A DNA stretch of 6,898 bases, taken from a virus. Taxonomy: Duplodnaviria > Heunggongvirae > Uroviricota > Caudoviricetes. The stretch is from the IMG/VR virus record IMGVR_UViG_2695420482_000014; one strand, given 5' to 3'. Shown one piece after another: positions 1-6,000 of the stretch. Made by a program: the position numbers. Every line of letters starts with the position of its first letter. Position 1 is the stretch's first letter.

Positions 1-3000
1 TTATCCATTTATTTTATCCATTCTAATACCAATAATATCTCTATTATCGCCATATATTTTCTCTGCACTCCCGGCACCATAATACTGGTTGAAACAACGA
101 ACTTCGCTTGTCACCTCTTCATGGCTTTGAGATATAGTAAACATCTTCAACACTTTTGTTGTATTTTCCATATCTTCATACACGACAGCATTACCACCTT
201 TACCAATAACGTTACCTAGCACGGGTGATTTGTTGTTGCTAAGCCTCAGCAACGCTGACTGAGTATAATCCGCTGGCGGTAACTCCGGCTGCGCATAATC
301 CACTGGAGGTAAATCAGGTCTGTTCGAACGAACAGATCCTCTTTCTATAGTCGTGCTCACTGTCGATGAATTCAACATAGCCTCAATTTTTCTGGTGATC
401 TCTCCCTTAGGCCATCTCAGTCTATACAGCATATTAGTAAAACATCCACTATGACTCTCTCTTGTCACGCAAAACCTATTATCACTTAAAACAACGCGAT
501 ATGTTCTGTTGCTAACCTTTACTTGCGCCCCATTATCAGAGTGAGCGGCAGCATCCCTTACAGAGGGATAAAACACGATTATCAGGCAAAGTCAGGTTTC
601 TGGTTAAAGAATTCCATGAACACCCCAAATTTACAGAAGATGGTGATAGCATACATTTCAACCTTCAAAATGAATCAATCTTTACTTTCTTAACAAACAT
701 CACCATGACATGACAACAAAAAACTGGAAATTAACTATTGTTTTTGAGTATCTGGCAACTCATTCATCCTTCCAGCATCCCGTCAGACGAACGTTTACGA
801 ACTATAAATCAGGTATTACTGGCCCTCGAAATCTGGAGATACTGACGTATCAACACGGTTCAGTAACACCCGATACCTCTTCCAGACTGTCAACAACGAT
901 GTCTCTTCATCCGTTGCGATCTGCAGCATCCTGAATATGAATGCCATAGCTTACGGCATCACGAAAAGTTTATGAGCGGCTCAAAGCATCAAGTATAGTG
1001 TTGCCGATCATATCGACTGTATGCTGATCGATAAGCCTGCTACGGCTGTCATGGACGGCGCGTATTACACTTTCGTATACGTTGCTTAAATCTGCTGCGG
1101 AAAGTGGTATTCGCTTACCTATATCCAAAACGTAATCCGCATAGGCATTTTCAGCACGATTAGGAGCAATGGGAGCAGAGTATCCTGCCGGGGCGGAAAA
1201 GTTGAAGTTGGACTGTAATGAGGGAATTTTCATGTTTATATCTAATACCCTGCAAATCATTTATTACAACAAAATAAACTATATCAAATTCATTTACCAT
1301 GAACTGCATGTATACTGACTTGTGTTCATGATTATATTAGGGTGGTTAAACTCAATAAAGTCACAAAAATGATTATAATTATGTAATGGTGTAAAATTAA
1401 AATATTTCTTAACTCCTTTCCCCAAACCATCATAATATGGATGAGCATCTACTTTACTATGCATAAAAGAAAGTCCCTCAAGTAGAGCAGGATGATTACT
1501 ACGGTTAACAATTATTGCACTATTTTCAATATTTACACTATCATTACGACGATCCACATGCATTGAAATTCCATCAGGAGCATATATTGTACCAAGCTTA
1601 CCTGTAAGTATCATATCCATATCAAGATAGATACACCCCTCCCCGAATGAAATACCGTGATTCTTTGTATTATATGTGCACCTGAATATCTCTCCTGCTT
1701 TTAATAAGGCTAAATTTCTGAAGAAATCAAACCATGCATGATTTCTTTTCTTTGCATACATAGAAATCAAAGAATCCTGCGCCTTTGAAATTTCCCTCAG
1801 CTCTTTCTCTAACAGATTCAACAAGTATTCATCTCTTTTGTCTTCAGTTCGTAACCTTTGTTCACATATAATATCATGATAAATATCTGATAGTTTTCTG
1901 TCATACATACTGAAGTCAACATCTTCCCGATAGATTATCATTACATTTTCAAAATCTCGTTCCAATTTTGAAAAAGCAGTCTTTTGGTTGACTGAAAAAT
2001 CGCCATCAACAAAAATACCTATCATACGATCACTCTCTATCCTTGCCGCATTTGTGACATTATCTAAATAGGGATGCTGCTTAGTATTAACTATTGGAAC
2101 CTCATCTTTCTTATATCGTTCAGGATTAGGTTCAAACCACTGAAAAAGAATAGGCGTTTTTTCATCAATGACCTTTAACTCATATTCCTTTCCTGCAAAA
2201 GAAACCGTTTGACAGGGTGAACTCTGCACTATATTTACTGAGTTATGGAAAGTTGTCCTTATCGGTGAAAGCATTCGTCGTCCTGTTTATCCATATTTTC
2301 TTCACAACTAACTCTTTAATCTATTAATTATATTGGCATACTCAACCACAAAACCTCCAGCAGTTTTGCCATCTTTGCTTTCCTAACAAACATCCACCGG
2401 ACATGACAACAAAAACCGGAGCCGGACTCCGGTTTTGTGAAGCTGTCGGGTTACTTCATCCCGCCAATATTTTCCCACGTCCCGTCAGCACGCAGGATTT
2501 GCAGCGGTCTTACCACACACTGTATCTGCTTTTTATCCGCATCCAGTATCACCACCTGCGTGATTACCCTGGCCTGCTCCGGAATAATACCATTCTCATC
2601 TGACTCCAGGATGTCTGCCGGCCCCAGACGCAGTTGTGCTGTAAGTAACTCCCCGTGTTCACGGTCATCATGCTTTCCGTACCCGCACAGACGCTGCATA
2701 AGTTTTTTTAGTACGTTCATGTCATTCTCCTGTTCTGCCTGTATCACTGCCCACTTCATCCAGCCCCTTAACATCCTGCCACGGCCCGTCACCAAACCTG
2801 ACCTGCAAATGCTGAAACAGCCCCTGAACCTGTGTGGCATCTTTGGGGTCAAGAAAGGTCAGTCCGGTGATGAGCGCACCATCTGTACCCGGGAACCAGC
2901 CATTGCTGTTTGTCTCAATAATGCTCGCCGGCCCCAGACGAAAACGGATTTGTGTCTCCCCCGGGTCGCCCTTCGGTCCCTGAGGTCCGGTTGCCCCCAC

Positions 3001-6000
3001 CGGGCCAGCCGCACCTGTTTCTCCTTTCGGTCCCTGTGGGCCTGCCGGGCCTGCCGCACCGGTATCTCCCTTTGGACCCTGTGGACCTGCATTTCCCGTC
3101 AGACCGGTCTCTCCCCGCTCTCCCATGTCACCTTTCGGCCCCTGCGGGCCTGCCGGACCAGCATCACCTGCCGGTCCCCGTTCGCCGGTTGCCCCGACAG
3201 GGCCGGTGTCACCGCGCTCTCCCTTATCACCCTTCGGCCCCTGCGGGCCTGCCGACCTGCCGGACCAGCATCACCTGCCGGTCCCCGTTCGCCGGTTGCC
3301 CCCACCGGGCCAGCCGCACCTGTTTCTCCTTTCGGTCCCTGTGGGCCTGCCGGGCCTGCCGCACCGGTATCTCCCTTTGGACCCTGTGGACCTGCATTTC
3401 CCGTCAGACCGGTCTCTCCCCGCTCTCCCCTGTCACCTTTCGGCCCCTGCGGGCCTGCCGGACCAGCATCACCTGCCGGTCCCCGTTCGCCGGTTGCCCC
3501 GACAGGGCCGGTGTCACCGCGCTCTCCCTTATCACCCTTCGGCCCCTGAGGACCCGCGGGCCCCTGTTCCCCCTTTGGCCCGGGAGGTCCCACCACGGTG
3601 GGGATTCGGTTTACGGCCTCTTCCGCCGCTATCCTGCTTTGTTCCGCTGACTGTGCGCTTTCTGCTGACTCCCGGGCTTTTTCTGTTGCGGTCGTTGCAT
3701 CCCTGGCTGCATTACCGGCTGCACTTTCTGCCGTCTTTCTTGACAATTCAGCATCTGCTGCACTTTGTGATGACTCACTGGCTTTTTGAGCGGCCGCAGA
3801 GGCCGAGGACGAGGACGCCTCCTCTGACTGCTTTGCAGCGGCTGCACTTTCTGCCGCCTGCCGGGCTGACTCCGATGCATCCCCTGCTGAAGTGTCAGCA
3901 TTTGCAGCGCTCTCTTCTGCCTGACTGGCTGATATGCCGGCATTCCTCGCTGATGTCTCCGCCTCTCCGGCATTCTTCTTCGCCTCCTCTGCGTGACGCG
4001 CCGCTTCTTCCACCATCAGTTCAAAACGACGCATTGCCTCCGGCCGGACGTCATCCTCCGACATGGCACCGAGAAAAGCATTCAGCGTCCCCGGTTGAGA
4101 ATCTTCATACACGGTGATGGTCCCGGCATGTGATGGAGGGAATCCCTCCACCAACAGAGTGACGCTGTACTGACCATACTCGACGTCCATGCTGTAACGC
4201 CCTGCCCTGCCTCATCCGGATTTTCAGAGGCCACCGTGTTCACCACCACCGTGGTGCTGTTACGTCTGGCTTTCAGTTGAATGGTGCAGTTCTGTATTGG
4301 TTTTCCTGTGCCGTCTTTCAGCACACCTGAAATCTTTACTGCCATATTCACCCCACAAAAAAGCCCGCCTGAACCGGCGGGCTGTCATAACACTGTGTTA
4401 CCTGGCTAATCAGAATTTATAGCCGACACCCACGATGAAACCGTCAGTGCGCCAGTCGCCACTGCCGGAACCTTCATAAGCAAGGTCAATAACCACCGTC
4501 TCTACGGGACTGAACTGAATCCCGGCATTCCAGGCCGGCGACAGATGACGCGCAGTATGACCATCACTGGCGGTGGTGGTCTCCTTCACATACCCCGGTT
4601 TCACTTCATCACGCCGGTAATCCTGAACACTGTCAGACCAGCGGGTGTACGCCATCCCGGCCATGCCATAGAGACTGACCCGCTCACTGAGCTGCCAGAC
4701 AGGGCCGGCCATCAGACTGACATAACGACCGCGCAGGCTTTCATAATGGAAGGTATTTTCACCCGTCTTCATCGTGTCACTTTTCTTCACCGATGCATAA
4801 CTCAGCGCGACAATGCCGCCCAGGTGATCCGTGAACTCATAACGGTATTTCACATTAATCCCTTTCAGATCGCCGGCCCTGATGCCGGTACCGGAAAGCC
4901 CTGGCGTACCGTCCGGGTGCACCTGTGTGTACCCCACAGAAAATGCACCGTGTCCGCTTTCAGCCTGTGCAGGAAAGGCAATTCCTGCCAGCAGGGTAGT
5001 AAACAATAATATCGTTGCGTATAAATGCCGCATGATTACCTCTTTGTTTTCAGTCAATAAAAAAGGCACCTCCTGAGGTGCCCGTCCGGGTTAATAAACC
5101 GTCAGCTGATACTGATCCCTGCCGTGGATTTTTTCATGACCACAACCAGTAAATCACTGATGTACGTTGTCGGCGTCCAGTTGTTCGCACCGGCCGACGA
5201 CACATTAAACGTCAGGGTGACATGACCCCGCCCTGCCGGCATATCTATCACCGATGAGAACACCCGGCTGACATCCGTTGCCGGTTCATGGAAAATCTCA
5301 ACCCCGTTCTTCAGCACCTGCAGCTTACAGGTGGAATACCAGTACGACTGCTGATTCGGGCTGTTGAAATTCTGGTGTTTCGTCCCGCGAAACAGCACCG
5401 GGGGAATGATAATCTGCCGGTCGAAGCCCTGGTCATCGTAAACTGTGACGGTTACCGTACCGCTGGCATAACTGTTATTCCGGGGAAAGGCTTTCCCCAC
5501 CGTCTTCACCAGGTCGCCTTCAATCTGGTTTGCAGACAGTTTCCCTCTGATGACACAGTTCTCGTTAATGGTGACATTATTGAGCGTGCCGGTATTCGCG
5601 GTAATTGCTCCGCTGATATCCGCGTTCCTTGCCGTCAGCTTTCCTTCCGGCGTCAGGGAAAATGCTGGGGGATTGCCGGACGAGGTGATGCTCACCGCAA
5701 ACAGTCGTTTCAGGAACACGTCGTTCATGAACAGCTGATTCCCCTGCGCCACAAATAACGGAGTGCTGTTGCCGCTCTCCGGATTTATCATCGCGATACG
5801 GTCAGCCAGCAGCAGTATGTTGCTCAGTGGCTGGCCATCAGTATCCTCAATCCCTGCACCAATCCCGGCCACATAAGGAATGCCGTTTTTGGTTTTTTGT
5901 ACTTTCAGCATGTAGAGTGCAGCCAGGTCATCATTTGTGTCCTTCTGCACGCGCTGTATCTGCTGTATGGTGGCGCTCTGGTTCTCCAGTGTTTTGTTGA

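Follow-up and report, generated by a model that had tools for sequence, protein, structure and literature searches.

A repeated collagen-coding block on either side of a scaffold join in a side tail fibre gene of a lambdoid prophage

The EPclA proteins are collagen-like side tail fibre proteins of enterohemorrhagic Escherichia coli (EHEC) prophages, with Z0982 of CP-933K and ECs0844 of Sp3 as examples (Ghosh et al. 2012, PMC3368898), and their assembly into a trimer with a collagen triple helix has been shown experimentally (PMC3368898). The commonest form, represented by Z0982, has 437 amino acids (aa), 111 of which are collagen residues, and collagen lengths of 78, 111, and 144, or of 81 and 114, are found within an overall range of 63-144 residues (PMC3368898). 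Changes of collagen length in 33-residue steps are already known, and defective genes, designated EPclA*, belong to the published family (PMC3368898). Here we analyze a gene of this type in a lambdoid prophage present on a stretch of 6,898 nucleotides (nt) of virus record IMGVR_UViG_2695420482_000014 (Caudoviricetes; the whole stretch is called the window below), in which gpJ and lom stand on one side of the fibre gene and nleB2, an nleC remnant, and nleH on the other, every gene being on the minus strand. An initial annotation had described a 257-bp direct duplication in this gene, together with a neighbouring 8-bp insertion. An unclosed join in a draft scaffolded from short reads separates the two blocks, and the 8 bases are very probably an unmerged-overlap scaffold join and not a mutation. 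The chances seem to us about even that this join explains the 8 bases and that the isolate also carries a real, in-frame 297-nt expansion at the locus.

The repeat and the join that divides it

Direct comparison of the two 257-nt blocks (Table 1) revealed a single mismatch, A at 3125 versus C at 3430, exactly as first described, and translation of the minus strand agrees with the earlier estimate of about 85 residues of Gly-X-Y throughout per block. In a repeat search the pair extended over 284 nt (96% identity, spacing 305), and Tandem Repeats Finder reported a period of 305, 1.8 copies, 99% matches, and a score of 1117. The block pair is thus genuinely present in the sequence, a chance match being excluded by a wide margin, and its location within the collagen-like tract of a fibre is borne out by the matches of the repaired translation to PF08400, PF01391, and PF06820. 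As written, the period of 305 is not divisible by 3.

The window is the reverse complement of the final 6,898 nt of draft contig CYDO01000005.1 (GCA_001285645.1, 295,191 nt), with which it is identical at 6897 of 6898 positions. The sole difference is at 3255, an A in the window and an N in the record; 9.2 kb of the contig contain no other N. This N separates two abutted pieces: a large one (window 1-3254), in which block 1 runs on to PfC, nleB2, and nleH, and a 3.6-kb terminal one (3256-6898), in which block 2 runs on to PCoil, PfN, lom, and gpJ. The sequence to the left of the N, ...GGGCCTGCCG, and that to its right, CCTGCCGGACC..., share a 7-nt overlap, CCTGCCG, and this overlap plus the N makes up the 8 "inserted" bases. 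The join as deposited reads GGGCCTGCCGNCCTGCCGGACC, and GGGCCTGCCGGACC is the sequence across it under a merged, in-frame model. The apparent insertion and its frameshift arise because a 7-nt overlap was too short for merging, with the N added, and, with an N at 3255 in the record, the frameshift there is no biological observation. Reading the N alternatively as GA would add a GPA triplet and make the period 306, likewise in frame.

Such a structure resembles the output of known tools. GapFiller needs an overlap of at least 10 nt between the two extensions before it closes a gap (PMC3446322), a length that the 7-nt overlap falls short of, and in pipelines that write scaffold joins as N and then fill gaps greedily, false joins are an acknowledged possibility (PMC5320598). 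We infer that an SSPACE/GapFiller-type pipeline lies behind the record; a literature search for CYDO01000000 returned no paper naming the assembly pipeline. The warning in the initial annotation that long repeats are an assembly hazard therefore applies with more force than its author thought, an unclosed N join lying between the copies. The proposal that the duplication is very recent or homogenised, in turn, does not hold as an inference, since the copies are on two separate assembled pieces with nothing contiguous across them.

Merging the overlap brings the period to 297 nt, equal to 99 codons (33 triplets) and to three 99-nt units, and leads to one open frame of 536 aa in which the collagen domain grows from 37 to 70 Gly-X-Y triplets. 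The second copy does not start at the end of the first, as it would in a simple tandem. Between them stands a 40-nt link, interrupted by the join, which encodes 13 residues and is identical to 3145-3184; since it matches this internal segment and neither block flank, two junctions are needed, and a 62-nt segment is present three times in the merged structure. The first junction, J1 (block 1 to link), reads …TATCACCCTTCGGCCCCTG followed by CGGGCCTGCC…, and the second, J2 (link to block 2), reads …CCCCGTTCG followed by CCGGTTGCCCCCACC…; both lie inside assembled pieces, at 11 and 36 nt from the N, respectively. Of the plain 257-nt duplication first described, the repeat itself therefore stands, and the merged form is a 297-nt, in-frame, two-junction rearrangement. 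Its origin could be accounted for by two template switches, each at an 11-nt microhomology: the first would lead from the block end back to 3145 and the second from 3195 back to 2998. Replication slippage, or serial template switching, between short repeats in the collagen-coding DNA would fit this pattern.

Block number in the isolate

Most probably, J1 and J2 exist in the DNA of the isolate, whose fibre gene would then have at least two blocks; no contiguous sequence runs across the join to fix the copy number (2 or more) under any of the readings. One argument for the expansion comes from the junctions. Among 134 loci compared, J1 and J2 are absent, even as 16-mers, from every locus other than the window's, and the corresponding normal junctions are present in 134 and 73 of the 134. 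As no other allele contains J1 or J2, no known paralogous allele could be their source, and assemblers and gap fillers that work with k-mers depend on reads holding these sequences, which favours a real expansion. The same is favoured by the fact that gain and loss of 33-residue units is natural in EPclA proteins. If the second copy were an overlap artefact, the genome would hold a single one, as the relatives do, yet the novel J1 and J2 argue for two.

The comparison of block number across related prophages, which had been suggested at the outset, gave one block in every close relative. The closest complete genomes, 14EC047, RM14723, and others, are 99.5% identical to the window; they span 1,611 nt where the window spans 1,921, and the surplus of 310 nt equals 305 + 5. 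With a single block left in the window, its fibre gene has just three differences from those of 14EC047 and RM14723, whose intact orthologue is WP_000268803.1 (437 aa): positions 3125 and 4078 and a 5-nt duplication. The nearest relative found is an IMG/VR scaffold, IMGVR_UViG_2690316273_000018 (loci L118 and L026), which shares the rare 4078G and 3125A; its single block is read straight through, and the 5-nt duplication is missing. Copy-number change was expected to lengthen or shorten the shaft, and collagen length indeed varies among relatives, with 0-38 triplets in those sampled plus 48 in the 470-aa allele of ATCC 43889 (WP_001303169.1).

Several results weigh against a real expansion. 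J1 and J2 occur contiguously in 0 of 5,426 complete E. coli genomes and in 0 of 50,697 phage records. The exact 29-mer of J2 is in none of IMG/VR, the JGI metagenomes, and the GTDB representative genomes, and that of J1 is not in IMG/VR, the only collection scanned for it; the normal junction matches at least 120 IMG/VR contigs. None of the 104 block-bearing IMG/VR loci has the block twice, their collagen domains ranging from 11 to 38 triplets, and 14EC047, RM14723, and the IMG/VR scaffold with the window's rare single-nucleotide polymorphisms (SNPs) are all single-block. The same 1.6-kb gene holds the unique 5-nt duplication, which suggests that the local assembly is unreliable, and many draft contigs begin inside the tract. 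Finally, the related scaffold IMGVR_UViG_2690316273_000018 is itself mis-scaffolded at this locus: 39 nt beyond its block there is an N, followed by two 99.4% identical copies of a lom-end/PfN/PCoil paralogue about 970 nt apart, and its linkage between the 3125 variant and the flank is the reverse of the window's. This scaffold looks like another mis-scaffold of fibre paralogues, and its N, near-tandem 5' halves, and link of the nleB2 side to a different fibre 5' half make the locus demonstrably prone to such errors.

In protein searches, the 536-aa repaired protein retrieved 120 representatives of clusters, 294-498 aa long and all lacking the junction peptides, in a list of incomplete coverage from which the 437-aa allele is missing. 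A search with an 86-aa junction peptide gave no full-length exact match, short collagen fragments dominating the list. Ten repaired or single-block proteins (536, 486, 437, and 387 aa) were absent from a collection of 15 billion proteins, a result that is uninformative, WP_000268803.1 being likewise reported absent.

The most serious competitor, to which we assign roughly one chance in three, is that the whole arrangement is an assembly product: the isolate would have an ordinary single-block gene of 437 aa, and the scaffolder would have set block-bearing pieces end to end, their ends extended or mis-built among paralogues. The N stands exactly between the copies, the close relatives, including the scaffold with 4078G and 3125A, have a single block, and the arrangement is unique among thousands of genomes. 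Paralogues are abundant, genomes with matches to the repaired junction sequence having a median of 13 matching places. Drafts break in the tract, as seen from partial PfC protein clusters of hundreds to 1,832 members and from draft contigs (L006-L010 and L012) that start 0-2 nt from 3125. The related scaffold, moreover, strings paralogous fibre halves around an N, and SNP-flank linkage is swapped between it and the window. However, simple abutting of two pieces would put the duplicate directly against the N and then the normal flank, whereas here 11 and 36 nt of link intervene, and no known paralogue is a source of J1 and J2, which are missing even as 16-mers from every allele examined. The 470-aa ATCC 43889 allele was considered as a paralogous source of J1 and set aside, since it is similar but has five mismatches in 70 nt.

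We regard as rather unlikely a second alternative, in which the expansion is real but belongs to a paralogous fibre gene of another prophage in the same genome, the scaffold being chimeric. The right-hand piece is merely 3.6 kb long and stops at the contig end inside gpJ, the nearest relative differs by side (RM14723 to the left of the join and 14EC047 to the right), and the related scaffold joins the nleB2 side to a different fibre 5' half, 96.7% identical. On the other hand, the complete genome of 14EC047 has the same gpJ-lom type contiguous with nleB2, so that the order of the genes is natural, and within the fibre gene each piece is one SNP from the 14EC047 allele. A recombination breakpoint at the duplication was rejected, as the differences of the window's halves begin outside the fibre gene, at or before 2378 on the left and at or after 4666 on the right.

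That the sequence is correct as written, with a 305-nt out-of-frame duplication and an 8-nt insertion in a decaying fibre pseudogene of a cryptic prophage, is very improbable: frameshifted EPclA genes are known (PMC3368898, Table 2), a complete genome (FWSEC0002) holds a frameshifted fibre gene, and the present gene also has a 5-nt frameshift, but the record has an N for one of the 8 bases, beside an exact 7-nt overlap. A programmed frameshift, or a restart at the ATG at 3125, was likewise discarded, the frameshift being the N join and the Met variant occurring also in intact alleles of 37 triplets (L121).

The fibre gene, its variants, and its neighbours

The features of the window are listed in Table 1. 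As assembled, the fibre gene consists of three open reading frames (ORFs), 4082-4351, 3099-4190, and 2722-3126. It thus lacks the one intact frame of an EPclA gene, being broken twice, at the N join and at the 5-nt duplication. On the repaired translation, PfN corresponds to residues 1-133 (PF08400, E = 6.4e-68), PCoil to residues 135-250 (116 residues, of which 37 are Ala, 23 Ser, and 15 Glu, with only 1 Leu, 3 Val, and 3 Ile), and PfC to residues 462-525 (PF06820, E = 4.6e-36). The collagen domain (PF01391, E = 2e-34) has 70 uninterrupted triplets after merging of the join versus 37 in the single-block allele.

Table 1. Positions of the blocks, junctions, and genes in the window
Feature	Position	Strand	Remarks
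Block 1	2987..3243	-	3' copy in gene orientation; A at 3125 gives a Met codon, GDMGERGE
Block 2	3292..3548	-	5' copy in gene orientation; common C at 3430 gives Arg
Spacer	3244..3291	-	48 nt: 40-nt link plus 8 extra bases; link interrupted by the join
Scaffold join	3248..3262		CCTGCCG 3248-3254, 3255 (A/N), CCTGCCG 3256-3262
J1 microhomology (block 1 to link)	3233..3243		11 nt, TTCGGCCCCTG; recurs at 3134-3144
J2 microhomology (link to block 2)	3292..3302		11 nt, CCGGTTGCCCC; recurs at 2987-2997 and 3185-3195
5-nt tandem duplication	4199..4203		GCCCT GCCCT; shifts the frame after PfN residue 47; second disruption of the fibre gene
EPclA-type side tail fibre gene (PfN, PCoil, collagen, PfC)	2722..4345	-	Identified from the ORF list and the Pfam matches of the 536-aa repaired translation
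89-aa protein consisting of a PfC domain	2451..2720	-	Directly downstream of the fibre gene
lom (Ail/Lom outer-membrane protein)	4410..5033	-	Upstream neighbour of the fibre gene
gpJ (tail tip protein), 3' part	5102..6898	-	Source contig terminates at 6898
nleB2 effector gene	1294..2274	-	Marks the exchangeable effector locus downstream of the fibre
nleC remnant	970-1260	-	
nleH, truncated	1-576	-	

The C-to-A change at 3125 replaces Arg by Met in GD(R/M)GERGE and creates the ATG of the 134-aa ORF 2722-3126. Other prophages have the Met variant in intact alleles, such as L121, and 16 of the collected loci carry it; it is an ordinary polymorphism, carries no evidence on the age of the duplication, and was possibly assigned to block 1 by the assembler. 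Independent draft contigs begin within 0-2 nt of this ATG, a place at which short-read assemblies break repeatedly. None of the 8,259 matching places from 2,524 complete E. coli genomes has the 5-nt duplication (best identity, 81/86), and the nearest relative, L118, lacks it as well; it reflects either a mutation of very recent date or a second error of the local assembly. In the complete genome of the O145:NM strain FWSEC0002 (NZ_CP031919.1; locus L134, 5227664-5228967), the fibre gene is frameshifted inside the collagen tract, and broken collagen tracts therefore also occur outside draft assemblies.

Repeats are present elsewhere in and around the gene. The PCoil part (3646-3930) has its own imperfect direct repeats of 21-33 nt, spaced at 39, 63, 84, and 105 nt; all of these spacings except 39 are multiples of 21 nt, which fits the heptad-based length variation reported for PCoil. 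The free-standing PfC protein (2451-2720) is paralogous to the fibre's own C terminus (2722-2950), with a repeat between 2590-2630 and 2900-2940, and in the IMG/VR locus L121 the fibre and the free-standing PfC are fused in a protein of 527 aa. Farther downstream, the effector locus (1-1260) is decayed, nleC being cut to its first 96 codons and nleH lacking a start, a state that matches RM14723, where the two genes are annotated as partial and frameshifted. The two copies of a 45-nt direct repeat (678-722 and 2371-2415), 87% identical, are situated about 100-145 nt upstream of the minus-strand reading frames of nleH and nleB2. The second copy falls in a region for which relatives carry the annotation of an incomplete hypothetical protein, and the repeat may be an upstream element common to the effector cassettes.

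Significance and comparison with known systems

With a rise of 0.29 nm per collagen residue (PMC3368898), the 99 extra residues, if real, would bring the stalk to about 61 nm, against about 32 nm without them. We consider it an even question whether the isolate carries this 33-triplet expansion, which would then be the longest EPclA stalk so far (70 triplets) and would have arisen in one step by two template switches. It would be a case, caught in the act, of side tail fibre length evolving in modular 99-nt steps and of tract growth by microhomology-mediated template switching, adding one more, unusually long allele to a known length polymorphism and leaving the current understanding of how fibres work unchanged. 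The fibre gene may be dead in this strain owing to the 5-nt frameshift; should that frameshift be real, no fibre is made at any block count, and the expansion would have no effect on the virion. The chief value of the analysis is one of caution, as both the frameshift and the "recent duplication" sit on an unclosed scaffold join: the 8-bp insertion is unfit for biological interpretation, and the block count should not be taken from the record.

In its single N between two copies, its overlap too short to be merged, and its position in a multi-copy prophage gene near a contig end, the join is like the gap-flanking duplications of SSPACE/GapFiller. Unlike in these, the bases beside the N are a third, internally derived segment and are the normal continuation of neither copy. 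With lambda Stf, the fibre shares the PF08400 N-terminal domain and the place of the gene after J and lom, but lambda Stf is without a collagen domain and differs in its C-terminal part (PMC3368898). In the ATCC 43889 allele, as in the window after merging of the join, the length changes by whole 99-nt units, in frame, and the link-to-unit junction of that allele resembles J1 at 65 of 70 nt; that allele, however, has one extra unit in simple tandem, whereas the window has three units' worth and two junctions, J2 being without a counterpart anywhere. In the EPclA family itself, the order PfN, a 116-residue Ala/Ser/Glu-rich PCoil, one Gly-X-Y domain, and PfC is the same, as is the locus after gpJ and lom and before effector genes, and the intact alleles nearest to the window's gene have the commonest published form, 437 aa with 111 collagen residues; in contrast, the window's gene is split by two frameshifts and, when repaired, would have 210 collagen residues (70 triplets) against the published 63-144. 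The duplication is at best a new, unusually long allele of a family already known to be polymorphic in length.

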